Made by a program: the position numbers and the translations under genes
Shown: one piece after another, positions 2,141 to 52,499 of the stretch
Layout: every line of letters begins with the position of its first letter
How positions within the stretch are numbered: position 1 is the stretch's first letter
From: a phage
Sequence record: PZ386957.1
Length of the DNA stretch: 64,000 bases
Direction: 5' to 3' (one strand)
Notes under the pieces: generated by a model
Told to the model about the DNA's origin: nothing
Database searches by the model: none
Seen by the model: only the letters and a program-made list of their open reading frames with translations

Positions 2141-2776
2141 TCAATCGAATGTAGAAAGCAAATGTTTTGTTTCTTTCAGTTGTCGTTCAAGATCTTTGCG
2201 TTTCTCTTTAAGTTGCATTTTAGCATTATTTCGCTCTCTTGTAACCTCTTTATCAATGCTCTTATTCCACTTATCAATATCAGAATAAGTTGGCATACCC
2301 AATTCTAGACCTAATGCGGTTGGATACAGGGTAACAGTCCATAAACCGCTAATCTTCTTAAATAGGTCGGGGTGTAGTGTACTATCTACATCTTCCGGTG
2401 TCAACTCTTTTTCTTCTTTCAGTGGTGGGATCTCGTCATATGGTTCCAGTGCATTTACTTTAATATCAGATACCTCATCAAAGAATCCGCGTACATCCGC
2501 AGGAAATACACAAGCAATTTCCCAACCGTGATCACGCAGAGAAGTAATATTTTTCACTCCCCCACCATGTGTGATGATTGATGTGACATTGCCATCAAGG
2601 TCCACCGAATTTACGAGAAATGGCTTATCGTCTGTCAGATCATTATAAAACTGTGCTTCGGCTGTAGTCATCTCCAGAAACAGATCTCGGATCGGACGAC
2701 CATCAGGTGCGTTACCTTCCTTGAGAGTATAAAAGCGACTTACGATCCATTTTTGCGGTAAAGCATTAGCGATCAT
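2141..2776 (-). CDS. hypothetical protein
   Basis: 211 aa ORF between 41 and 61; C-terminal charged coiled-coil-like tail; no motif recognised. Confidence 0.55.
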   Translation of the reverse strand: MIANALPQKWIVSRFYTLKEGNAPDGRPIRDLFLEMTTAEAQFYNDLTDDKPFLVNSVDLDGNVTSIITHGGGVKNITSLRDHGWEIACVFPADVRGFFDEVSDIKVNALEPYDEIPPLKEEKELTPEDVDSTLHPDLFKKISGLWTVTLYPTALGLELGMPTYSDIDKWNKSIDKEVTRERNNAKMQLKEKRKDLERQLKETKHLLSTFD

Positions 2777-2826: not shown

Positions 2827-4239
2827 TTAGAAAGTCATGTTATTTGCTAGCTCGTCGAGTTTTTCGCGTTTCTCGGCTTGCTGTGCGCTTTGTGGTTTAA
2901 TTTGTGCGTTCTCCTGGTCGGCGATCTGGTTTGGAACTTCATACCAACGCTGATTTCCTTTTTTCACACCAACGTTAAAGCGAGAATAATAGTTCTTATC
3001 GCCGTAACGAGATTTGATCTGCTTGAGCAGTTGAACGCCCATTTTTGCAAGGTCTTCGGTTTCAATCACACCCAACATAAAATCGGCTGTAGCCGGAAGA
3101 CCTGCGGATTCAGCGGTATCACTCATGTTAAGGTCCGATGCATCCCATCCCGCGCGAGTAGTCTGTGCCGCAGTCCAGCCAACAACATCCCACTTAACAA
3201 AAAATCCTCGCAGTTCTTCCGCAATAGCCTTAACTAGTGTGTAACTGTTTTCAGAGTATACACGCAAACGAGACGATGCGCAAATCCCCAGATAGTCAAC
3301 AATTACAACATCAGGTTTAAACTGTTTCTTGAGTCGCAATTCATTCATTAACGCCTCAAAGTGGTTGGAGTTCGCGCCACCAGTCGGATATTGCTTGATC
3401 ATCAGCTTGCCGATTGGACGTTCTCCGGCTTTCTTATTCTTAACACGTTTCATACGTGCCGAATATTCAGCAAAAGAAACATTACCATTATCCAATTCAT
3501 CTAAGGTAATGTCAAGCAAGTTTGCGTCAATACGTTTTGCTACTACGTGCTCTGCCATCTCCATTGAGATATACAGGACATTATAACCACATTCCATATA
3601 ATCGGCAGCGAGAGAACATAAGCCCAATGATTTACCAACGTTTACACCAGCAAGCAACACATTCAAGGTCTTTTTCTCTGCCCCACCTTTCGTTATTTTA
3701 TTCAGACTAGGCAGCTTAAACGGGATCTTATTCGCTTTAGTCTGATATAACAAGAATCGTTTTTCAAAGTCATTAAACCAGTCATGACCTACATCAGAAT
3801 CAAACGTAATGGATAGTGCCTCCTGCATGATCTCAGGAATAGCGCCCTCGCCTGGCAATTTCTTATTCTGTTTTTCTTTTGGTAGCTGTGCGTTCGCCTG
3901 AATCTCTAGCGCCCGTGACATTGCATTATACATAGCACGGTCACGAATAAATTTTTCTGTTTCCTTCATTAACCAATCAAGGTCTTCCGGTGTATTCTCC
4001 AAAGAATCAAGAAGAGTTTTAGCCCCTTCATATGTTGTCTGATTGCCTCTCTCCTTGTCTAAAGCAATCTGTAATGCTGTAGGGGTAGGAATATTGGAAT
4101 ATTCGTCTACATGCTTTTTAATCAGCTTATAAATCAGTTTTTCTTCGTCTTCGGTGAAGTAGTCCGCTTTAAGATGAGGCCATACATTCGTGAAGAATGT
4201 GCCATTATAAATCAACTGTGAAAAGATAGTTTTAATCAT
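2827..4239 (-). CDS. 41: replicative DNA helicase (DnaB-like, T4 gp41-like)
   Basis: 470 aa; Walker A GVNVGKS and RecA-like core; size and position match T4 gp41. Confidence 0.9.
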   Translation of the reverse strand: MIKTIFSQLIYNGTFFTNVWPHLKADYFTEDEEKLIYKLIKKHVDEYSNIPTPTALQIALDKERGNQTTYEGAKTLLDSLENTPEDLDWLMKETEKFIRDRAMYNAMSRALEIQANAQLPKEKQNKKLPGEGAIPEIMQEALSITFDSDVGHDWFNDFEKRFLLYQTKANKIPFKLPSLNKITKGGAEKKTLNVLLAGVNVGKSLGLCSLAADYMECGYNVLYISMEMAEHVVAKRIDANLLDITLDELDNGNVSFAEYSARMKRVKNKKAGERPIGKLMIKQYPTGGANSNHFEALMNELRLKKQFKPDVVIVDYLGICASSRLRVYSENSYTLVKAIAEELRGFFVKWDVVGWTAAQTTRAGWDASDLNMSDTAESAGLPATADFMLGVIETEDLAKMGVQLLKQIKSRYGDKNYYSRFNVGVKKGNQRWYEVPNQIADQENAQIKPQSAQQAEKREKLDELANNMTF

Positions 4240-4241
4240 AC

Positions 4242-4553
4242 TTAGCCTCCAACTACACGCATAACAAAGGTCTTGAGTTTATACCAGAAAGTTTCTTTTT
4301 TCAACTTTTCTTCTGCTTCTTTGATCTGCGCGGTTAACGCCTTAATGACGTGAGGATATACCACATCACGATCTGACGGCGTGGAGTAGTCGACCACAAT
4401 ACCTTTAGTGTCTGGATCGTATTCAACATTATGAATATAGACAATATGATGCTCTCCCTCTTCATCAACAATTATCAGTTCCTGAATAACTGTCTTCATT
4501 GCTTCTTGAATCAAGCCGTGTGCTTCTTCTAAACTCGTTGGTTTCTTATCCAT
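4242..4553 (-). CDS. hypothetical protein in the T4 gene 40 position
   Basis: 103 aa ORF between uvsX and 41 where T4 has gene 40; GAGAGG RBS upstream; no sequence motif confirmed. Confidence 0.5.
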   Translation of the reverse strand: MDKKPTSLEEAHGLIQEAMKTVIQELIIVDEEGEHHIVYIHNVEYDPDTKGIVVDYSTPSDRDVVYPHVIKALTAQIKEAEEKLKKETFWYKLKTFVMRVVGG

Positions 4554-20677: not shown

Positions 20678-20947
20678 TCAATAATCATAAATCGCCCTCA
20701 GTTCTTTATAGCCTCCAATGTGCTCGTTGTCAATGAATATCTGGGGGTATACAAATCGGAGGCTGTCTTTACCCAACCTCCCCGCCAGTTCTTCAATCAT
20801 ATCACGGTCGGGAATAATGTCAACCCCGACCTGCTTGAATACTGGTTTAAGTGTATACGGAATACCCAGATCATCCAGTAGCTTCATTGCACTAATACAA
20901 CCATAACAATGATAAGCCTCTTTCGGTATACCGTATATCTCGATCAT
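20678..20947 (-). CDS. glutaredoxin/NrdH-like small redoxin
   Basis: 89 aa; CxxC (CYGC) near N-terminus and C-terminal IGGY..L motif; in the T4 nrdH position. Confidence 0.65.
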   Translation of the reverse strand: MIEIYGIPKEAYHCYGCISAMKLLDDLGIPYTLKPVFKQVGVDIIPDRDMIEELAGRLGKDSLRFVYPQIFIDNEHIGGYKELRAIYDY

Positions 20948-21444
20948 TTCTCAGCCTTTAATCTTTCCAGTTCTTCTTCCAGTTCCTTGATGCGTTGTTC
21001 TCGTTCAAAATCACGCTGTAACTTAGTGGCGAATACTCGTTTAAACTGATTGTAATCATCGATTTTAAACACTTCTTCTTCGCCATAGCGACGTACAGAA
21101 ACTTCGTAGTTATTGAAGAATTGTTGCATCATTGCTTCGGATGATAGTTCTGCTGATACTACTTTAAAATATTGATCTTCTGTAGGCGAAAACCAATTGC
21201 AAGCATAAAGATAAACCTTTTCATTGTCTGGACACTGGTAAGCCTTACCATCGATTTCAATCACAGAAACATATTCAGGTATAGTAGATGAATCAATAGC
21301 TAAGACTTTAAACTGACGGTCCCCGATAAACTCGGAGATCGCACGATTCGCATCACTGATCGCAAATGCTTTACGCGCTTGTTCGTTTTTCCACTGATAG
21401 GTCATGCCAACAACAAACATATTACCAACCTCGCTCTTTACCAA
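20944..21444 (-). CDS. tandem-paralog family protein (one repeat domain plus coiled-coil tail)
   Basis: 166 aa; repeat-domain signature (G.TYQWK...F.V..ID....YVSVIEIDGKAY) shared with neighbouring genes; C-terminal charged helix. Confidence 0.6.
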   Translation of the reverse strand: MVKSEVGNMFVVGMTYQWKNEQARKAFAISDANRAISEFIGDRQFKVLAIDSSTIPEYVSVIEIDGKAYQCPDNEKVYLYACNWFSPTEDQYFKVVSAELSSEAMMQQFFNNYEVSVRRYGEEEVFKIDDYNQFKRVFATKLQRDFEREQRIKELEEELERLKAEK

Positions 21445-22255
21445 TCAAAAATTCAACTTCACGACGTTTAATGTCTTCTTGAAGGTCTTTAATCTTCTGG
21501 CGATCTTGCATGATTTCGTCCATTTTGTCAAGTGCTGCGATGAAATCATCGAAACGTTCAAAGGTTTTACCTTCATTTGCTTCGCCAAATTTAACCATTG
21601 TCAGGCCGTAACGACTACTAAACAGACGTTTCAACTGTCCAACGACCTTAGAATCATCGTTCACCTTTTCTTCTGGTTCTTTCACTGTTTCAACTTCACG
21701 AAAATATTTTCGTTCAAGCCCAACAAACCACACAGCATCAACATCATCATCAACACCCGCCGAATGAGGATTAAATGTTCCACAAGCATTATCATTATTG
21801 ACGTCGATCATAGTAACGAAACCAACAGAATCAACGGAAGATACCGTAAAAGTCTCATCTCCTATCCAATCAGCAATTTTACGGTTGATATTAGAACAGT
21901 GAGAAAACGTCACTTTTGCGTTTACATCTTTCCAAGTATAAGTTTTACCAACTTCCCATTTAGGAGGAACTTCTTCAACTTCACGAAAGAATTTTCTATC
22001 GAATGGACTAAAGAAATATGTTGATGTCCAAATGTCTTTTCCTGTAGCAGTTTTCGCCGTATGATAAACACCGTCTAGCTCTATTGCATCAATCCAACCG
22101 TTACCCTCGATCTCGATGATGGTAAATGGCTTGTCACCAATAGCTACACTAATATCGCTGTTAAGTGGAGAAAGACAACCGTCTACGTTAGTAATAAACT
22201 CAGTTTTAGCGTTTTCGTCTTTCCAAGTGTAAGTTTTACCAATTTCCCATTTCAT
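21422..22255 (-). CDS. tandem-paralog family protein (two repeat domains)
   Basis: 277 aa; internal duplication KWEIGKTYTWKDENAK... and KWEVGKTYTWKDVNAK..., each ending [DE]RK[FY]FREVE. Confidence 0.65.
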   Translation of the reverse strand: MKWEIGKTYTWKDENAKTEFITNVDGCLSPLNSDISVAIGDKPFTIIEIEGNGWIDAIELDGVYHTAKTATGKDIWTSTYFFSPFDRKFFREVEEVPPKWEVGKTYTWKDVNAKVTFSHCSNINRKIADWIGDETFTVSSVDSVGFVTMIDVNNDNACGTFNPHSAGVDDDVDAVWFVGLERKYFREVETVKEPEEKVNDDSKVVGQLKRLFSSRYGLTMVKFGEANEGKTFERFDDFIAALDKMDEIMQDRQKIKDLQEDIKRREVEFLIGKERGW

Positions 22256-22267
22256 AATATAATCCTC

Positions 22268-22747
22268 TTAACCGATTTTATCAAGTTCGTTTAATGCTTT
22301 CTCTGCTTCCTGTATAGCTTGCACCCTTTCCGGCATTTTGTCAAGAAAATCTTTCAACTCTTCAAAACTGGAGATATGACGCAAGGCGTTAGCACCGATA
22401 GCCGCATGTGATTTGCATTCAAAGCGAATTTTATAATTATCCATCGCCAACTTGAGAAGATCAATTAGTTTAGATTCTTCTGGAATAATAATTTCTTCAA
22501 ATCTGCTACGGTCATGATCCAGAAACCAACAAGATAGACCTACATCGGTTGAACTCATATAAGTTCCATCATGAAGATATACAGACCGCACGTATCCTTT
22601 TTTCGCATCAACCGACGCAACTTTAAACGGTAATCTCAGATATTTCAAATAATCAACATCATACCATTTAAAAAATTGGTTTGCATCTTTTACATCTTTC
22701 CACGCATAGGTCTTACCAGCTTCCCATTTCATAATATCATCTCTCAT
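22268..22747 (-). CDS. tandem-paralog family protein
   Basis: 159 aa; KWEAGKTYAWKDVKDANQF start of repeat domain; helical tail. Confidence 0.6.
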   Translation of the reverse strand: MRDDIMKWEAGKTYAWKDVKDANQFFKWYDVDYLKYLRLPFKVASVDAKKGYVRSVYLHDGTYMSSTDVGLSCWFLDHDRSRFEEIIIPEESKLIDLLKLAMDNYKIRFECKSHAAIGANALRHISSFEELKDFLDKMPERVQAIQEAEKALNELDKIG

Positions 22748-23276
22748 TTTTGATACGTGATTCTAATTGGATCATACGGTCGCGCGTTTGCTTGTATTCA
22801 CGGATAGCACCGATCCGGCTAGGCATACCATCTAGGACGCTCTTAATCCCTTCTAGGGTAGTGATTTTAGCAATGCTATTATGTAACCCCATCTTATCGA
22901 TCAACTGAATGTCGTAGGCTTCCATAAGCAGTCCCAGACGTTCTAAGGTTAAATCTTGTTCTTTATCTTCTTCCGATTCTGGAATCTTAGGTTCAATAGT
23001 AACTTCGGTAAAGAAACGACGCTCACCACCCCAAAACCACACACCGGAACAGTCAATAGGGGATTCTTTTAAAGTCATGGAGTCGAAATCACTACCAATA
23101 ATAGTAATTTCTCTAACATCACCATCGTCGTCAATGTCTTCTACCTTAAACGGGCGACCAGCCAACAGGTCCATAATACATCTGTTAATACCAGACGAAA
23201 ATTTAGTCAGTTCGGCTTTCGACGCTTCGCATTCAATCTTGTAAGTTTTACCAACTTCCCATTCCATAATAATCAC
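22737..23276 (-). CDS. tandem-paralog family protein
   Basis: 179 aa; EWEVGKTYKIECEASKAEL and ERRFFTEV repeat-domain signature. Confidence 0.6.
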   Translation of the reverse strand: MIIMEWEVGKTYKIECEASKAELTKFSSGINRCIMDLLAGRPFKVEDIDDDGDVREITIIGSDFDSMTLKESPIDCSGVWFWGGERRFFTEVTIEPKIPESEEDKEQDLTLERLGLLMEAYDIQLIDKMGLHNSIAKITTLEGIKSVLDGMPSRIGAIREYKQTRDRMIQLESRIKNER

Positions 23277-23277
23277 C

Positions 23278-23787
23278 TCAAATAATTTTCACTGGAATAC
23301 TATTAACAATCTTGTATTGTACTTGATTGTCAGACCCCCGCCACGGCTTCTTCGTTGGCATATCTTTAATATAACGCCCATCGATGAACATGTCAACTGA
23401 TTCTACAATTTTTCTTTGCTCATCATTCAATTGGTCAAGGGTATAACCGGACCATAGCCAAATATCTTTATTTGGCATCCATGATTTTACTTCATCGATG
23501 ATCCGCTGTACACCCTTTAAATTGCGTTTATACAGTGGATCACCACCTAAGAATGTTAGCCCCTGAATAAAATCAGGTCTAAGCAGATCCAGAATCAATC
23601 CCATTGTATCATCGGTGAATGGTTCCCCGTTCTTAGGATTGAGTAGGCTAGCATTAAAGCAACCATCACATGCGTGTGAACATCCGGTAACGTAAAGGGA
23701 GACTCTCACTCCCTCACCGTTAACCATATCACAATCTTTAATATCGGCATAGCGTAGTTTGCCGTATGTATCAGAACTCATATTCAA
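23278..23787 (-). CDS. nrdG: anaerobic ribonucleotide reductase activating protein NrdG (radical SAM)
   Basis: 169 aa; radical SAM cluster motif CSHACDGC; size and position match T4 NrdG. Confidence 0.88.
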   Translation of the reverse strand: MNMSSDTYGKLRYADIKDCDMVNGEGVRVSLYVTGCSHACDGCFNASLLNPKNGEPFTDDTMGLILDLLRPDFIQGLTFLGGDPLYKRNLKGVQRIIDEVKSWMPNKDIWLWSGYTLDQLNDEQRKIVESVDMFIDGRYIKDMPTKKPWRGSDNQVQYKIVNSIPVKII

Positions 23788-23923
23788 TTACCCCGAACTC
23801 GTTTACAATCTGCGCTTTATAGTAACCACCGCGAGATGCTAATAGATAAGCTGGGCTTAGGTATTCGTATTCACGGATTTCTACTTGTGCGTTTTCAGTT
23901 TCCCAAATCAGTAAAGTCCACAT
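23771..23923 (-). CDS. hypothetical small protein
   Basis: ORF track 23771..23998 trimmed to ATG 23923 (AGGAGA RBS) because the longer start would lie upstream of its own promoter. Confidence 0.4.
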   Translation of the reverse strand: MWTLLIWETENAQVEIREYEYLSPAYLLASRGGYYKAQIVNEFGVIEYEF

Positions 23924-23965
23924 ATTTGATTCTCCTGTAAAGTTGTATCTCGTCTTGATGAATAT

Positions 23966-23994
23966 AGTATAGGGGATCTCGCGATCCCCGTCAA
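23966..23994 (-). promoter_or_regulatory. sigma70-type early promoter
   Basis: Minus strand TTGACG-17-TATACT; spacer contains palindrome GGGGATCGCGAGATCCCC. Confidence 0.55.
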
Positions 23995-23998
23995 GCAT

Positions 23999-24547
23999 TT
24001 ATTTTAAATTTTTTCGAATGTATTCAGACCATTCCTTCCCTGTCAGTTCGGTCCCATTCTGGAAACTGAAATATTCATACGGCATCGAGTCAAGATAAAA
24101 CAGGATCATACATCGCGCCATATAATACCAATCACGATTAAAGTAAACTACGTTATCACCAGTACCATCAACCCCTTTATCATAACCATCGCTGGTACGG
24201 GCGACCCATTGAATAGTATCATTTTTCTCACGGATAGTCACAGGTTCCCAATATCCAGCACATCCAGCATGACCACACGAACAAGTAAGGAAATATTGCC
24301 CTTTTGCTTTGTTGTCATCCCATTCACGATGGATTGGTTCGATCTCGTGAAACAGTGCCAAACAATCATGATTATGCAACACTGGCTTACCATCAATCAA
24401 TGCATGGAATGTATACAAACGACCCGTAGACAAATAGCTATCCTCACGCTCAACCAGTTCAATAGCAATCTTTTTAGCTCGTTCTTTGTGTCGTTGTGCT
24501 TTACGCTTACGGTTTAATGATTTCATATTCACCTCACACATTATCAA
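23999..24547 (-). CDS. hypothetical protein (Cys/His-rich)
   Basis: 182 aa ORF between nrdD and nrdG; CSCGHAGCAGY motif. Confidence 0.55.
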   Translation of the reverse strand: MIMCEVNMKSLNRKRKAQRHKERAKKIAIELVEREDSYLSTGRLYTFHALIDGKPVLHNHDCLALFHEIEPIHREWDDNKAKGQYFLTCSCGHAGCAGYWEPVTIREKNDTIQWVARTSDGYDKGVDGTGDNVVYFNRDWYYMARCMILFYLDSMPYEYFSFQNGTELTGKEWSEYIRKNLK

Positions 24548-25083
24548 AGGTCGCGATATAGTACATTATGAAAATGAGAACTTGCATTACCAATATTGTA
24601 GATAACAAATTCTTCATCCGGCGCTTGCGCTACAAATTGAGTATGAGCAACCGCTACGACTTTAAAAATACGATCCGTGATCTTGTGCTTAATTTCTGCC
24701 CCTACTTCCATAGGAACATATTCATTTGTTTCTGTTTCAGTCGCAAAACAGCCATCTTCTTCATAAGCACGAACAAATCGGTCGCAATCAGTACGCTTAA
24801 CAAATTCAAGAGTATATAATTCTCGTGAATTGTCGGTATAGACCAATACAGAATTATTATGATAGCGAATCACATACAGGTTATTATCATCGTCAATTAC
24901 GCAAAAGCTACGGATTCCTTCGCCTTGACTCCAGCAGATATTAACCACCGTTCCTCTAATAAAAAAACTTTCCTTTAAATTAAAACTAGTCAATGTGCTA
25001 GCGTGCATTTTAACAACAACACCATCACCAATTTCCAGTTTACGAAGTTTAACTTCTTTGCTCAGTACACAAAACATCATCAT
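24544..25083 (-). CDS. hypothetical protein
   Basis: ORF track 24544..25131 trimmed to ATG 25083 (the MMMF start) downstream of the promoter at 25112-25139. Confidence 0.55.
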   Translation of the reverse strand: MMMFCVLSKEVKLRKLEIGDGVVVKMHASTLTSFNLKESFFIRGTVVNICWSQGEGIRSFCVIDDDNNLYVIRYHNNSVLVYTDNSRELYTLEFVKRTDCDRFVRAYEEDGCFATETETNEYVPMEVGAEIKHKITDRIFKVVAVAHTQFVAQAPDEEFVIYNIGNASSHFHNVLYRDL

Positions 25084-25111
25084 ATTGTCCTCTCTTTGTT
25101 TCGATGTGAGC

Positions 25112-25139
25112 ATTATACATGAGCTAATCATGTTGTCAA
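25112..25139 (-). promoter_or_regulatory. sigma70-type early promoter
   Basis: Minus strand TTGACA-16-TATAAT directly after the nrdD terminator. Confidence 0.55.
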
Positions 25140-25155
25140 CACCCCAAAACGAAAA

Positions 25156-25177
25156 AGCCGACCCTTTCGGATCGGCT
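25156..25177 (-). terminator. rho-independent terminator after nrdD
   Basis: AGCCGATCCGAAAGGGTCGGCT hairpin followed by a U-tract on the minus strand. Confidence 0.6.
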
Positions 25178-25182
25178 AAAAA

Positions 25183-27045
25183 TTACATGTGCTTAACGCG
25201 GTTTACCATCTCGGAGTGTTTCCCGTGGTTAAATGGACGCAGATCAACAGATCCAAGATATCCACTAACGCGGCGGATAACATTCATCTTTTCCAGATTG
25301 TCATTGCCGCAATCAGGGCAAACAAAACCAGACTCGGTCGCTCTCATTTCCTTATTAGATCCGCATACATGACATACATCAGAAGGAGTATTAACACCGA
25401 AGTAGTGCAATTTATCCATTGCATAGTCTACTACAGTTTCAAGACCTTTCAGGTTGTTTTTCATGTCTGGGAACTCAACATAAGAGATCATGCCACCGGA
25501 CGCCAGACAGTGATAATCTTTCTCAAAGTCGATTTTCTCAAACGGTGTAACCTTCCGGTCTACGTCAAGGTGGAATGAGTTGGTGTACCAGTCTTTATCG
25601 GTAGCACCCTTAACAATACCAAATTGCTCTCGGTCCAGTCGATTAAATCGATAGCAAAGGCTCTCGGCTGGCGTACCGTAAAGACTAAAACCAAGTCCGG
25701 TTTCGTCCTTCCATTTTTCAGTATAATGACGCAAGATCTTAAGAATATGTTTACCGTATCGCTGCGCATCTTCCGAATCAAACGGATGAACACCAAACAG
25801 GACGCTCAATACCTCATGTAAACCAATATACCCAAGAGAGATACTAGCGCGACCATCTTTCAGCACTTCCAAAATTTCATCGTTTTGATGAATACGGAAA
25901 AATGCACCTTCGGTATACAGTACAGGGGCAACATTGGCTTTAGCACCTTTTAAAGCGTCTACGCGACTCATGAGAGCATCAAAACAAATAGGCATACGAT
26001 TAGCTAGCTCTTGTTCGAATAGCTCAATTCTGCGCATTACAGACGCTTTACCAGCACGACGCGCGGCAATAAGGGCAATACGCGGAAGATTCAGAGTCAC
26101 AACACCCAAGTTATTACGTCCGTCTAATACTTCTTCGCCTTTCTCATTATGCCACACACCCAGGAAGCTACGACAACCCATCGGGCTAACCGGAACACTA
26201 GATCCGGTGATACTACGGTTATTCTTCGCAGAGATATAATCAGGGTAAAGACGCTTACTAGAACATTCCAATGCAAGTTGCTTAATGTCGTAGTTCGGAT
26301 CTTCCGGTTTAAGGTTTAATCCTTCTTCTAAGAACATCACCAGCTTAGGAAACACCGGAGTTATACCATCTTTACCTAAACCTTTAGTTCGAACTTTCAG
26401 GATCGCTTTCTGAATCAGTTTTTCTTCCCAGCTAGTACCCATACCAAAGGTTAAAGTCACAAAAGGCGTTTGACCGTTGGTGGAGAACAAAGTGTTGATT
26501 TCATATTCCAACGCTTGATACCCGTCTAAAGTTTCTTTTTCTGTCTTCTCTTGTGCATAGAGAGTATCAGCTTTGATTCCGTAGGTTTCGGCATCAGCAA
26601 GGTGTTTATGATATGTTTTCTCAACATACGGTGCTAACACCTGATCGATGTTTGCAATTGTGGTCCCGCCATATTGATGACTTGCCACCTGTGCGATAAT
26701 TTGAGCGGTTACAGCACAAGCAACGCCGATTGATCTCGGACTTTCGATTTGTGCACTACCCAATTTAAAACCATTCTCTAACATGTCCTTGAGATTAACA
26801 AGACAGCAGTTAGTAAACGGCATAGCGGGTGCATAATCCATATCATGATAATGAATATCACCGTCTACATGCGCTTTATAGATGTGCTCAGGTAACACGG
26901 TTTTAGCAATCTGTTTAGACACAGCGCCAGCAATCAGATCTCGACGTGTCGGGAATGTTCGCGCGTCTTTGTTCGCGTTCTCTTTGCTTACTTCGTTTTC
27001 TTTACCCGTTGCAATCTCTGTAATGTCTTTGATTAGTTTTTCCAT
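25183..27045 (-). CDS. nrdD: anaerobic ribonucleoside-triphosphate reductase NrdD (glycyl radical enzyme)
   Basis: 620 aa uninterrupted; C-terminal glycyl-radical motif RRVSGYLGS and CxxC...CxxC zinc site (CHVCG, CPDCG). Confidence 0.92.
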   Translation of the reverse strand: MEKLIKDITEIATGKENEVSKENANKDARTFPTRRDLIAGAVSKQIAKTVLPEHIYKAHVDGDIHYHDMDYAPAMPFTNCCLVNLKDMLENGFKLGSAQIESPRSIGVACAVTAQIIAQVASHQYGGTTIANIDQVLAPYVEKTYHKHLADAETYGIKADTLYAQEKTEKETLDGYQALEYEINTLFSTNGQTPFVTLTFGMGTSWEEKLIQKAILKVRTKGLGKDGITPVFPKLVMFLEEGLNLKPEDPNYDIKQLALECSSKRLYPDYISAKNNRSITGSSVPVSPMGCRSFLGVWHNEKGEEVLDGRNNLGVVTLNLPRIALIAARRAGKASVMRRIELFEQELANRMPICFDALMSRVDALKGAKANVAPVLYTEGAFFRIHQNDEILEVLKDGRASISLGYIGLHEVLSVLFGVHPFDSEDAQRYGKHILKILRHYTEKWKDETGLGFSLYGTPAESLCYRFNRLDREQFGIVKGATDKDWYTNSFHLDVDRKVTPFEKIDFEKDYHCLASGGMISYVEFPDMKNNLKGLETVVDYAMDKLHYFGVNTPSDVCHVCGSNKEMRATESGFVCPDCGNDNLEKMNVIRRVSGYLGSVDLRPFNHGKHSEMVNRVKHM

Positions 27046-27089
27046 TGTATCACCTATGAAAAAGCGGGATTTCTCCCGCTCGTTGATAG

Positions 27090-27584
27090 TTATTTTACCA
27101 GTTCTGCTAATTCTTTTTCCGCCGCTTCCAGTTCAGCTTTCAGTTGTTTGATCTCTTGTCGCTTCTTATTAGCGGCTTCCTGCTTACTATTTCGGATAAC
27201 CTGATCTAGATACAACTCCCAATCCTGAATATTTTTGATAATGTAGCCGTCAACATTAATTGGTCGGAGATTCAGTACAGCTTCCAGTTTAGTTGCAAAA
27301 ACTTTAATTGCTGGGGTGAAGTATTCATATTCGTTATCTTCAAACCAATAACCTAGACTTGCATTCTCAATACGAAGATGAAGTTTAAGATCAAGGTCTT
27401 TATCATCGGTATATAGGTCTTTTACACACCCCATAGAATTAACAACAACTTTAAAACGAATTTTATCTACACCACCAAAAACATCTTCAAGAATATCAGC
27501 AATTGAGCTATTAGCGCAAGATTGGTCGCTGAATGCGTCAAGGTTTTCTTTAGTTACAGTATACCAAACATCTTGTACCCACAT
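27090..27584 (-). CDS. hypothetical protein, related to the tandem-paralog family
   Basis: 164 aa; shares the VFATKL segment and C-terminal coiled-coil with the 20944..21444 protein. Confidence 0.55.
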   Translation of the reverse strand: MWVQDVWYTVTKENLDAFSDQSCANSSIADILEDVFGGVDKIRFKVVVNSMGCVKDLYTDDKDLDLKLHLRIENASLGYWFEDNEYEYFTPAIKVFATKLEAVLNLRPINVDGYIIKNIQDWELYLDQVIRNSKQEAANKKRQEIKQLKAELEAAEKELAELVK

Positions 27585-27615
27585 AATATAATCCTCTCGT
27601 TGTTAAGTGGGAGTA

Positions 27616-27643
27616 TTATAGCATACTCCCTTCGCATGTCAAG
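27616..27643 (-). promoter_or_regulatory. sigma70-type early promoter
   Basis: Minus strand TTGACA-16-TATAAT; -10 lies inside inverted repeat GGGAGTAT..ATACTCCC. Confidence 0.6.
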
Positions 27644-28817
27644 CACTAACTTTTTTCTTTACTGCTTTCACCTTCTGGCGAATTGCTCGAATCTCTTCGA
27701 TCTCTTTTTCAGTCTCTTTAACAATTTCTTTGCGATTCTGAATATCTGTATCGAGATTATCATCAAGTTTAGGCAGCATGTCAATCAAGAACTTTTTAAA
27801 GTCTTTCAGGTTTCGAATAACAGCACCTTCGCCCATTACCGCAACACCCACACCATCCGGCAGATCACCAAACAGCTTAACCAGTTCAGACAGATGATCA
27901 TGATCTTCTAGTGCTTCTTCCGGTTCAGATGGCAGTTCAACAAAGTTATAACGTTCATCATTGCTGATCAAGTGATACCAGCAAAGCCCGAAAGATTTCG
28001 GTGTATATTCTACACCATCAATTTCAACCGCGTCAACACTTCCATAATCATCTACTTTAGTTACCTTAAATCCTTGTCCCAGCTTTTGAACAATTTCAAC
28101 AACATGACTTGATACAGTTTCAGCGGTAAACCAATATGGCAAATTATGCTGATTTGGCTTGTAGCGTTCACCTACTTTAAATCTCTGACCATCCGCTTGC
28201 ATAGAATGAAATTGTTGTTTCGTGATTTCCGCGAAGTATTCAAATTCGCCACCATCAAACACACAAGCCCATTGATCACAAAAACGATCTGCCTTAACAG
28301 TTTCACCTTTCGCGGTGATCATGGTAGCTGATCCGTGCAATTCTTCTTCAACTAAAAAGCCATATTCGACAAAATCAACAAGTTTCATAGCTTCTTTGTG
28401 ATCTGGATCATGCTCTCCCCAGAATCGCTTAAATTCTTGCAAACCTTCTGGGGTAAACGAATAACATTTACCTTTTTCAAAGTAAGTCGGCATTGCATCC
28501 TCTTTCTTGTTCATCGCTTCGTATGCCTCTTTTGAGATGCGTTTAAAGTATTTACGCTCATTGTGCATAATCATAGTAGCCCAATAATCAACAATATCAT
28601 TAGCGGAATAAACTACATCTCCAGCTTCAATAGTAATAACATGACCGTGGTCATCTTTTTCTAATACTTTAAAGCCCTTTTCTACGATTTCAGCAACCCG
28701 AATATGACCACGGCGCGAAGCATCGGTCAGAATAATTGAATAGCGAGAAAAGTCTAGAAACTCATCTTTACCGCCTTCACGGAATGCATAGTAATGACCT
28801 TCAAAGAATTTAGCCAT
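27639..28817 (-). CDS. tandem-paralog family protein (three repeat domains)
   Basis: 392 aa; three internal copies of the roughly 85-aa repeat domain, each ending in an ERKYF-like motif; C-terminal lysine-rich helix. Confidence 0.65.
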   Translation of the reverse strand: MAKFFEGHYYAFREGGKDEFLDFSRYSIILTDASRRGHIRVAEIVEKGFKVLEKDDHGHVITIEAGDVVYSANDIVDYWATMIMHNERKYFKRISKEAYEAMNKKEDAMPTYFEKGKCYSFTPEGLQEFKRFWGEHDPDHKEAMKLVDFVEYGFLVEEELHGSATMITAKGETVKADRFCDQWACVFDGGEFEYFAEITKQQFHSMQADGQRFKVGERYKPNQHNLPYWFTAETVSSHVVEIVQKLGQGFKVTKVDDYGSVDAVEIDGVEYTPKSFGLCWYHLISNDERYNFVELPSEPEEALEDHDHLSELVKLFGDLPDGVGVAVMGEGAVIRNLKDFKKFLIDMLPKLDDNLDTDIQNRKEIVKETEKEIEEIRAIRQKVKAVKKKVSA

Positions 28818-28848
28818 AATATAATCCTCTCGTTGTTTAGATGGGAGT

Positions 28849-28877
28849 ATCTTACTACTCCCGTTTCATCATGTCAA
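28849..28877 (-). promoter_or_regulatory. sigma70-type early promoter
   Basis: Minus strand TTGACA-17-TAAGAT inside inverted repeat GGGAGTA..TACTCCC. Confidence 0.5.
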
Positions 28878-29440
28878 GCGTTAAATGACTTTTGGATCTC
28901 TTTCAGTTCAGCTACTTTATCGGCGCTATATTTTGCTTGATGTTCCATGCGCTTAAGCTCACCTTTGATATAGGTTTCTAGCTTAGGTTTATTCTCAATC
29001 AGAAAATCTTTCAAGTCATCGGCATTTTTAAAGTATAGCTGATTATCAAAGCTAAAATCTTCCAGCGTCAAGGATACCAAAGAAGATTTCGCAAACAAGT
29101 TAATCAGATCTTCCAGAGATTCTTCTTTCTTAACTGGTTTCATTTCTTCAAACTGCTTTTTAGTGATGCGTTTAAAGTATTTGCGCTCGTTTGCAGCAAT
29201 CAGAACAGATGCACCTTCATACCCATGAGTTTCTACCAGATACACACGCCCCATCGCATCAACAGTGAGAACTTTAAAGCCGTTACAAAGCACGTCATAC
29301 AAGAACTTATTATGTTGCGGACATCGTTTGATAAATTCTGCGGCTGTTTCTGCACTACGGAAAGTGTAATAACGACCTCGTTCAAAAGCAGCATCATTTG
29401 AAGACTTAGCCGGATACAATTTATACGTTTTCTGTACCAT
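28874..29440 (-). CDS. tandem-paralog family protein
   Basis: ORF track 28874..29458; start refined to ATG 29440 (GAGG RBS); contains NGFKVLTVDAMGRVYLVE and ERKYFKRI repeat signature. Confidence 0.6.
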   Translation of the reverse strand: MVQKTYKLYPAKSSNDAAFERGRYYTFRSAETAAEFIKRCPQHNKFLYDVLCNGFKVLTVDAMGRVYLVETHGYEGASVLIAANERKYFKRITKKQFEEMKPVKKEESLEDLINLFAKSSLVSLTLEDFSFDNQLYFKNADDLKDFLIENKPKLETYIKGELKRMEHQAKYSADKVAELKEIQKSFNA

Positions 29441-29454
29441 AATATAATCCTCTA

Positions 29455-29727
29455 TCATTTCACTAATTGAACAGCACGAAACAGAATGCGGTCACACGGA
29501 AGAAGCATAAATTCCCAACGCGGATCAAAGTCTTTAGCGGTATATGTTTTCCCATCAACCGAGATTTCACTTACATAACCAATAGGTGACACTTTAAGAA
29601 CAGTAAACCCATTCTTGATGACTTCGTAGGTATCTTTCAAACCTTCGTAGTCATCCTCTAGGAAGTCTTTACGTGCTTGCTCAGATTTAAAAACATAGGC
29701 CACACCGGATTTAAACATCTTACGCAT
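29455..29727 (-). CDS. tandem-paralog family protein (single repeat domain)
   Basis: ORF track 29455..29787 trimmed to ATG 29727 (AGGAGA RBS), downstream of the promoter at 29759-29787; NGFTVLKVSPIGYVSEISVDGKTY signature. Confidence 0.55.
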   Translation of the reverse strand: MRKMFKSGVAYVFKSEQARKDFLEDDYEGLKDTYEVIKNGFTVLKVSPIGYVSEISVDGKTYTAKDFDPRWEFMLLPCDRILFRAVQLVK

Positions 29728-29758
29728 TGTTGATTCTCCTTCTTGATTAGATGGGAGT

Positions 29759-29787
29759 ATTTTACTACTCCCATTTCTTATTGTCAA
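29759..29787 (-). promoter_or_regulatory. sigma70-type early promoter
   Basis: Minus strand TTGACA-17-TAAAAT inside inverted repeat GGGAGTA..TACTCCC. Confidence 0.5.
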
Positions 29788-47935: not shown

Positions 47936-48274
47936 TTACACCTTTAAAGTCATAGACGCATAAACATTAATACCAGGCCAATTGGGATCACAATTATACT
48001 CAACATCCCACAAATAAAGCGGTTTGGATGTATCAGCCAAGTTTTTAAAATCTTCTACCCACATTTCAAGGCTATAGGATGGATAAACTAGGCTATCATA
48101 TCCACCGTAACGTTGGCCTACTGGTCTGTCAGTAAAAACTACCTCAAGATCCGGTAATTCTTTTTCTAGGATAACCGCCAGCGCATAAATCAGGCGGTCT
48201 TCCTTGTTACGCTGCCGTAGGACCGTTGTCAGTTGGTTCTTCTGGTTCACTAGCAAGTACCTCCACATTTTCAC
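47936..48274 (-). CDS. hypothetical protein, start uncertain
   Basis: 112 aa ORF with non-ATG first codon; overlaps the upstream gene. Confidence 0.4.
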   Translation of the reverse strand: MKMWRYLLVNQKNQLTTVLRQRNKEDRLIYALAVILEKELPDLEVVFTDRPVGQRYGGYDSLVYPSYSLEMWVEDFKNLADTSKPLYLWDVEYNCDPNWPGINVYASMTLKV

Positions 48275-48527
48275 AGAATGAAATTTTCACGGACACAATT
48301 TTACCATAAGTGAAGAATGAATATACATTATCGAGATATTCAACATCACCTACAATCACATCAAACTGCGGGTCAGCCACTGCCGCAACATATTCTACCA
48401 GTTCATCAAGAGAATGCAACTTAATTTCATCAATTCGGCTATATTTGGTTGCATCTTTAATTTTAAAACCACGTTCTTTCAGCTTATCAATCAGAATTTC
48501 ACGCGGAGTTTCAAACAGTTTGCTCAT
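48207..48527 (-). CDS. hypothetical protein
   Basis: ORF track 48207..48545; start refined to ATG 48527 (GAGG RBS). Confidence 0.5.
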   Translation of the reverse strand: MSKLFETPREILIDKLKERGFKIKDATKYSRIDEIKLHSLDELVEYVAAVADPQFDVIVGDVEYLDNVYSFFTYGKIVSVKISFCENVEVLASEPEEPTDNGPTAA

Positions 48528-48549
48528 AATATAATCCTCACACAATTAA

Positions 48550-51988: not shown

Positions 51989-52054
51989 GTTGATTCTCCT
52001 CTCGTTTGTTTGTGGGGGTATCTTACTACCCCCGTTTCATGTTGTCAATTGTTT

Positions 52055-52432
52055 TTAAGAAAATTTTACTTCGTCTACAATGTCTTTCATGACATTGATT
52101 TCCATTCCGGTCAGAACACGTTGGAACATGTGCTGCACATACGCTTTCAGGTATCCATTTGATGGCTTGCTATCAAAAGTCTTTTTAGTGTAGTAGTCAT
52201 CACCGAAAGCTACTGTAATTACATTTTCGTCGTCGTTCCAAGCGATATAAGCAAATTTGCCGTTATCCCAGAAGCGAGCACTAATTGCTACTTTTGTTGA
52301 ATCGAATCCTACTTCGCTGTGAGATTCAAGAACTACTTGCGTGCCAGTTTCTTTATGAATGTAGTAGCGGGATACTAAGTCAAAGTTACGGGTGTAGTGA
52401 CATTCGAAGTTATCTTTAAACATCATCATCAT
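52055..52432 (-). CDS. hypothetical protein
   Basis: 125 aa; AGGAGA RBS; promoter at 52471-52499. Confidence 0.5.
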   Translation of the reverse strand: MMMMFKDNFECHYTRNFDLVSRYYIHKETGTQVVLESHSEVGFDSTKVAISARFWDNGKFAYIAWNDDENVITVAFGDDYYTKKTFDSKPSNGYLKAYVQHMFQRVLTGMEINVMKDIVDEVKFS

Positions 52433-52470
52433 TTTTGATTCTCCTAAGTGTGTTTCGTTTCGATGTGTGC

Positions 52471-52499
52471 ATTATGCTATAGTCGTTTATGGTTGTCAA
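52471..52499 (-). promoter_or_regulatory. sigma70-type early promoter
   Basis: Minus strand TTGACA-17-CATAAT. Confidence 0.55.

Follow-up and report, generated by a model that had tools for sequence, protein, structure and literature searches.

A nine-gene family of GoF-like barrel proteins in an RB49-like Krischvirus and the replacement of barrel domains among sister phages

Introduction

The GoF (ComC-alpha), Frd.2 and MotB.1 proteins of phage T4 have been defined as a phage LSm-like fold family (Kim et al., 2025; PMC12152347), and what GoF does in its wild-type form has been an open question since the late 1970s. The GoF(D25Y) mutant raises mRNA half-life and stabilises the gene 41 mRNA post-transcriptionally, and rho alleles are suppressed by goF mutations, with the mRNA-stability effect and the rho suppression established only for the D25Y and G84R mutants (PMC12152347). 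For Frd.2, a CRISPRi-ART screen of T4 found frd.2 to be the sole fitness gene whose function is unknown (PMC11879866). A second described system relevant to the present locus is the promoter-early stem-loop (PeSL) cassette of phages RB49 and phi1, in which a consensus sigma70 promoter, a stem-loop over the -10 element and a Shine-Dalgarno sequence lie between accessory open reading frames (ORFs; PMC2839356, PMC4122927). Here we compare with these systems a region (20944-29787) of tandem paralogs flanking nrdG and nrdD in a 64,000-nucleotide stretch of phage DNA (sequence record PZ386957.1; the whole stretch is called the window), for which a first-pass annotation had reported eight genes sharing a repeat of no recognised family.

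The window belongs to an RB49-like T4-type phage of the genus Krischvirus, family Straboviridae, with 96-97% identity to RB49. Krischvirus lies outside the Tevenvirinae, unlike the setting of the T4 family members. The flagged region is matched by 59 phage records at 90-99% identity (RB49 at 96.4%), and is kept in 56 of 59 Krischvirus records. All genes of the region are on the minus strand in the order nrdH, A, B, C, D, nrdG, three small ORFs, nrdD, E, F, G, H and gene 49, the letters A to H denoting the eight paralogs (Table 1).

Identification of the Repeat as a GoF-Family Domain

The eight minus-strand ORFs were confirmed as paralogs, all being linked by all-against-all BLASTP with E-values down to 1e-12 and with internal repeats in B and F. 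Together they hold 11 copies of a domain of ~90 amino acids (A1, B2, C1, D1, E1, F3, G1, H1), and the alignment of these copies gave the consensus FExGKxY...F...FKVxxVDxxGxVxxI..G...ERxYFxEV, reproducing the three sequence motifs by which the repeat had first been described. Searching the 613 six-frame ORFs of the window with the repeat profile identified a ninth paralog, the RB49 dc2 ortholog, with an E-value of 5e-7 although it was not in the training set. As such the earlier count of about 12 copies exceeds the number in the eight genes by one, the twelfth lying in this ninth gene outside the flagged range. In profiles built with one gene left out at a time all 12 copies were recovered at 25-58 bits, while the best of 999 shuffles reached no more than 11.4 bits, and the similarity between the domains is therefore not compositional. 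No further member was found in the rest of the RB49 genome, so that the total in the phage is nine genes and twelve domains. Weak, sub-threshold matches to a broadened domain profile at 48210-48545, 52058-52471 and 24547-25182 on the minus strand (E-values of 0.004-0.03 over the 613 ORFs) may represent very distant relatives or chance.

By profile comparison the repeat is the domain with which the GoF/Frd.2/MotB.1 proteins begin, a family of early proteins in T4-type phages. When built from the window repeats only, the profile gave 39.5 bits for T4 GoF and 14 bits for Frd.2, and after widening with distant representatives the scores were 84 bits for GoF, 35 bits for Frd.2 and 22 bits for MotB.1. 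The proteins also matched several PHROGs families, three of which are labelled goF, and RefSeq already lists F as "frd.2 / goF mRNA metabolism modulator" and G as "goF mRNA metabolism modulator", with the other six of the eight labelled "hypothetical". The view that no family could be recognised is superseded by these matches, and the repeat was not placed in a well-characterised housekeeping family, the GoF family being without an established housekeeping role. Searches of Pfam, NCBIfam and PADLOC gave no meaningful matches, PADLOC holding models of defence systems and not of anti-defence proteins, the FeoA profile was not matched in the Pfam scan at E-values up to 1, and a sequence search of the PDB returned chance matches only.

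An exhaustive hidden Markov model (HMM) search of 1.84 billion representative proteins gave 107 matches at E ≤1e-3, 88 of which were small proteins that carry the domain N-terminally, in one copy in 76, two in 10 and three in 2. The domain started within residues 1-24 in all 88 of these, a pattern to which the window proteins conform, with the two- and three-barrel proteins as variants. The remaining ~19 matches were large repetitive proteins (Cna-B/VCBS-like) with many partial profile matches each, and were judged spurious. A tblastn search of the phage collection with two metagenomic multi-domain representatives found nothing.

The T4 and window proteins thus share by profile a homologous N-terminal five-stranded barrel of ~90 amino acids followed by a variable C-terminal part, and both sets are small and mostly acidic, come from T4-type phages and have no known essential role, expression being early in T4 and probably so in the window phage. 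T4 has three single-domain genes, while the window phage has nine genes with twelve domains, some encoding two or three barrels in tandem, and the window genes show neither one-to-one orthology nor synteny with goF, frd.2 or motB.1 of T4. At the start of the RB49 genome (1-9400), gene 39 and a 39.2-like ORF are followed by dexA, and the T4 goF-cef-motB-motB.1-motB.2 block is absent at the T4 position. The absence of this block, together with the lack of a clear ortholog of any T4 member among the window paralogs, points to an expansion specific to the Krischvirus lineage. Kim et al. (2025; PMC12152347) make no mention of RB49, paralog expansion or tandem domains. While the family itself was already known, if functionally unsolved, the nine-gene expansion, the two- and three-barrel tandem proteins with coiled-coil tails and the polymorphism of barrel cassettes described below are new.

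Table 1. Coordinates of the GoF-family genes and of the candidate promoter elements in the window.
Feature	Position	Strand	Length (amino acids)	Description
Gene A, RB49p048 ortholog	20944..21420	-	158	One barrel domain (21142-21423) and charged helical tail
Gene B, RB49p049 ortholog	21422..22255	-	277	Two tandem barrels (21962-22255, 21650-21967) and tail; domain 2 is a minority allele
Gene C, RB49p050 ortholog	22268..22732	-	154	One barrel (22472-22735) and tail
Gene D, RB49p051 ortholog	22737..23267	-	176	One barrel (22983-23273) and tail; protein modelled with AlphaFold2
Gene E, RB49p057 ortholog	27090..27584	-	164	Most diverged barrel (27297-27584) and coiled-coil tail
Gene F, RB49p058	27639..28817	-	392	Three tandem barrels (28521-28817, 28209-28496, 27918-28196) and tail
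Gene G, RB49p059	28874..29440	-	188	One basic barrel (29144-29395, pI 9.3) and tail
Gene H, RB49p060 ortholog	29455..29727	-	90	Barrel alone, without tail
Ninth paralog, RB49 dc2 ortholog	2141..2776	-	211	One barrel (2453-2761) and tail; outside flagged range
PeSL upstream of H	29753..29787	-		TTGACA, N17, TAAAAT; -10 within GGGAGTA/TACTCCC hairpin, -13.8 kcal/mol
PeSL upstream of F	28843..28877	-		Overlaps the stop codon of G
PeSL upstream of E	27608..27642	-		12/12 sigma70 match, extended -10 TG, hairpin -14.5 kcal/mol
Sigma70-like site, 11/12	23368..23396	-		~100 nt upstream of D, within the 3' portion of nrdG; possible D-C-B-A promoter

Replacement of Barrels Among Sister Phages

Compared with RB49 and phage Brandy most genes of the region have 94-99% protein identity, the exceptions being B (75% in RB49), G (73% in RB49), A (68% in Brandy) and E (65% in Brandy). 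In these genes the differences are restricted to blocks, and individual segments were compared between the window and six comparator genomes. The second barrel of B is only 35-40% identical to its counterparts in RB49, Brandy, Phi1 and ELT4 with the attached tail at 93-94%, the barrel of A is 58-62% identical in Brandy and UPWr_E1 (tail 86-88%), and that of E is 48-49% identical in Brandy and JK32 (tail 85-90%). In UPWr_E1 the barrels of C and D are each 45% identical to those of the window, with tails at 96% and 85%, respectively. Gene G is the exception, having a tail that is more variable than its barrel. At the nucleotide level the edges are sharp, identity between the B genes of the window and RB49 being 20-50% within ~21660-21940 and 96-100% outside. 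The barrels thus act as interchangeable cassettes, while the tails to which they are joined stay constant. Nucleotide identity to the sister phages fell sharply, to 20-60%, at single barrels at 21660-21940, 22480-22720, 22990-23260, 21130-21410 and 27265-27585, with flanks of 93-100%.

The divergent genes A, B, E and G have raised synonymous divergence (dS), with ratios of nonsynonymous to synonymous divergence (dN/dS) of 0.2-0.5 in an overall range of 0.03-0.5, which indicates allele replacement under purifying selection rather than positive selection in situ. The region had earlier been described as diversifying, and this is borne out in that barrels are replaced by alleles of 35-62% amino acid identity in sister phages with tails remaining at 85-100%, but not in the sense of positive selection, which was rejected since dN/dS is below 1 with raised dS. 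The variants were closest to their positional counterpart and not to other paralogs, the exception being barrel 2 of RB49 B, which is nearer to barrel 1 of B; intragenomic gene conversion was therefore also rejected as the source of the divergent alleles. The barrel-2 allele of B found in the window is present in 3 of the 59 records. In phage ELT4 (145-1179 of L011) the B ortholog has lost barrel 2 exactly at the conserved RKFFREVE motif, leaving a single barrel fused to the tail, and the A ortholog is split by a frameshift. In the RB49/phi1 cassettes the described events are indels of whole genes between PeSLs (PMC2839356, PMC4122927), whereas here the replacements are mostly intragenic and bounded by protein-domain motifs, such that mosaic exchange in the accessory regions of T4-like phages is possible at the level of protein domains and not only of whole genes between PeSLs.

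Predicted Fold of the Barrel

The protein encoded by D was modelled with AlphaFold2 from an 87-sequence alignment, giving a predicted local distance difference test (pLDDT) score of 81.8 with most of the barrel above 90; a single-sequence run reached only 38. The model predicts a confident barrel over residues 1-90, consisting of beta1, two helices and beta2 to beta5, followed by a less confident helix and hairpin and then a confident long terminal helix. This agrees with the bent, five-stranded antiparallel beta-sheet or barrel at the N-terminus of the T4 proteins. Its best structural neighbours were the SH3-like domains of FeoA and IdeR, as is also the case for the T4 GoF family. There is no sequence similarity to FeoA or to the C-terminal SH3-like domains of DtxR/IdeR, identity in the structural alignments being 9-15%, and unlike FeoA and IdeR, for which the context is iron transport, the proteins considered here are those of phages, with metal-binding histidines not reported for GoF (PMC12152347). 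A Foldseek search of the PDB gave no significant match, with Sm D1/D2 and an Sm-like protein among the non-significant ones, while the BFVD database gave 58 matches at E ≤1e-3, from T4-like phages of Enterobacterales and Aeromonas and from phAPEC8-like phages. On this model the fold is accepted as a small SH3-like (SH3/FeoA-like) barrel; assignment to the actual Sm/LSm family is unsupported, neither an N-terminal helix nor a significant structural match to Sm proteins having been found.

Charged Helical Tails

The charged coiled-coil tail proposed for these proteins is present in seven of the eight flagged genes and missing from H. Held-out tails, whether whole or as the middle segment, did not score above shuffles in the leave-one-out analysis except for C and, marginally, F, and the proposal that the tails form a conserved second domain was dropped for this reason. 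Likewise, a tail profile did not match the C-termini of T4 GoF and Frd.2, and nothing similar to the C-terminal domains of T4 was detected in the long charged helical tails of the window. The resemblance between the tails is mainly compositional and architectural, and "coiled-coil tail" is a fair description where "conserved tail domain" is not. The tails probably mediate self-association, as suggested by the predicted long helices and, by analogy, by the dimer bands given by GoF and MotB.1 (PMC12152347).

Gene Starts and Promoters

The starts of A, C, D, G and H were set at 21420, 22732, 23267, 29440 and 29727 from a conserved GAGGATTATATT-ATG (GAGG..ATG) context and the RB49 annotation, correcting the first-pass starts of A (21444), C (22747) and D (23276). 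The sequence GAGGATTATATTATG, comprising the ribosome-binding site (RBS), a fixed spacer and the start codon, occurs at 13 minus-strand sites in the window at ≤2 mismatches compared with 0.3 expected, including those at 4551, 22253, 27582, 28815, 29438, 32947, 48525 and 53956. This context appears to be a genome-wide translation-initiation signal of early genes without specificity for the GoF family.

A near-consensus sigma70 promoter lies directly upstream of E, F and H only, in each case with the -10 inside a GGGAGTA/TACTCCC hairpin (-11.9 to -14.5 kcal/mol, z -3.0 to -4.5). The three elements align across ~75 bp and are PeSLs as known from RB49 and phi1, with sigma70 -35 and -10 hexamers, a stable stem-loop and a Shine-Dalgarno sequence between accessory ORFs. 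In RB49/phi1 both promoter and terminator activities of PeSLs have been demonstrated experimentally, on other cassettes (PMC2839356). No PeSL element was found for A, B, C and G, each of which abuts or overlaps the preceding gene, leaving no room for a promoter of its own. The claim of a separate early promoter for every gene therefore holds for E, F and H and is plausible for D, with its candidate site within nrdG, but fails for the other four. The PeSL promoters make early expression plausible for the locus, though not for every gene singly. A candidate promoter before B (22284-22256) was rejected because its -10 coincides with the spacer between RBS and ATG, which would leave no leader. At 52014-52048 on the minus strand, outside the flagged region, a further, fourth PeSL (TTGACA, N9, GGGGGTA, N6, TACCCCC) belonging to this subclass is predicted.

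Possible Functions of the Expanded Family

The explanation we favour, with reasonable though not high confidence, is that the locus represents a Krischvirus-specific expansion of the GoF family, in which accessory genes expressed early encode binding modules that have RNA metabolism or host factors as their target. Transcription would start early from the PeSLs before H, F and E and from the promoter within nrdG before D, with G, C, B and A carried on transcripts from those promoters. Each protein has one to three N-terminal barrels and, in all but H, a charged helical tail that is likely to self-associate, and the barrel would be the changeable, ligand-binding part attached to a tail that stays constant. 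As the analogy of GoF(D25Y) suggests, the target of the barrel may be a host or phage macromolecule tied to mRNA turnover or transcription termination, and diversity would arise by recombinational swapping of whole barrel cassettes at the conserved motifs on either side of the domain.

Where GoF has its suppressor mutation G84R, five of the 12 window barrels (B1, B2, D1, F1 and G1) have K or R, and at the D25 position three (C1, D1 and F1) have an aromatic residue (W or F), so that some natural paralogs resemble gain-of-function states of GoF. These residues and the position of the dc2 ortholog next to gene 41 fit a role related to mRNA but prove nothing. The dc2 ortholog is directly upstream of the helicase gene 41 (2827-4239), the T4 counterpart of which encodes an mRNA affected by GoF(D25Y). 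Several points weigh against the favoured explanation. No wild-type member of the family has a known function (PMC12152347), early timing in the window phage is read from promoter sequence, and self-association of the tails from predicted long helices and the dimer bands of the T4 proteins. In addition, 10 of the 12 window domains are acidic, with isoelectric points (pI) of 4.3-5.9 (the exceptions being G at 9.3 and H at 6.6), which is unfavourable to direct RNA binding. For the majority of members this acidity makes protein ligands likelier than direct binding of RNA, and it leaves room for an anti-defence or host-factor role.

Such a role is the basis of a possible, if doubtful, alternative, in which the genes form an arsenal of anti-defence or host-factor decoys, each SH3-like barrel neutralising a polymorphic factor of its own in host defence or restriction and the swaps tracking host diversity. 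The restriction of allele replacement to barrels among sister phages would be expected from such an arsenal, as would small, mostly acidic barrels of a protein-interaction type, a position within an accessory region that PeSL cassettes delimit, variation in copy number and pseudogenes in ELT4 and the dispensability of the T4 family members in laboratory strains. Set against this, dN/dS is below 1, the sole phenotype found by experiment in the family relates to the stability of mRNA and to rho alleles, and no likeness to known anti-defence proteins turned up in searches that included no dedicated anti-defence library, the defence-system models of PADLOC giving nothing.

More tentative still is the suggestion that the genes constitute a polymorphic set of binders, in which exchangeable barrel specificity domains on constant self-associating tails would be traded as alleles between Krischviruses by recombination at the boundary motifs, matching variable host targets such as defence proteins or variants of the RNA degradosome or Rho. 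If so, the proteins with two or three barrels in tandem would act as multivalent forms.

It is improbable that the proteins are true RNA chaperones of the LSm/Hfq type, forming rings and binding RNA directly. The Sm proteins among the non-significant Foldseek matches and the basic or neutral barrels of G and H are in keeping with this, but the top structural neighbours of the D model are the SH3-like domains of FeoA and IdeR and not Sm proteins, two helices are inserted between beta1 and beta2, the N-terminal Sm helix is absent, and most domains are acidic. Furthermore, tandem barrels in a single chain are unfit for a homo-hexameric ring, no confident AlphaFold3 hexamers were obtained for GoF or MotB.1 and the effect of D25Y is independent of Hfq (PMC12152347).

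Very improbable is the original "antiterminator" idea for ComC-alpha/GoF, by which the barrels would be Tudor-like modules that bind RNA polymerase or Rho and modulate transcription termination; the suppression of rho alleles by goF mutations fits it, but structural scores were no better than for many unrelated small barrels, and GoF(D25Y) acts post-transcriptionally in a reporter assay (PMC12152347). That the genes are functionless ORFans hitch-hiking on mobile cassettes is scarcely credible, for while PeSL-bounded units are described as able to excise as mini-circles and shuffle, and A is frameshifted and B shortened in ELT4, all eight genes are kept in nearly all of the 59 Krischvirus genomes with dN/dS of 0.03-0.5, the domain is conserved across many T4-like genera and frd.2 is a fitness gene in T4.

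The phage offers twelve natural variants of the one domain. Population data distinguish the varying part (the barrel) from the constant part (the tail), a division that supplies specific constructs and pairs of alleles for work on binding, reporters and host range.

Other Features of the Locus

The nrdD gene follows gene E in the direction of transcription, with no promoter between them. Directly 3' of nrdD, at 25156-25177 on the minus strand, an intrinsic terminator is predicted, with a strong hairpin of -16.5 kcal/mol and a run of T residues, and immediately past it a 12/12 sigma70 promoter for the next ORFs is predicted at 25112-25139 on the same strand. Two very different allele classes exist among Krischviruses for nrdH (20678-20947) and for the RB49p055 ortholog (24544-25080), with 54-59% amino acid identity in some genomes and 93-99% in others.

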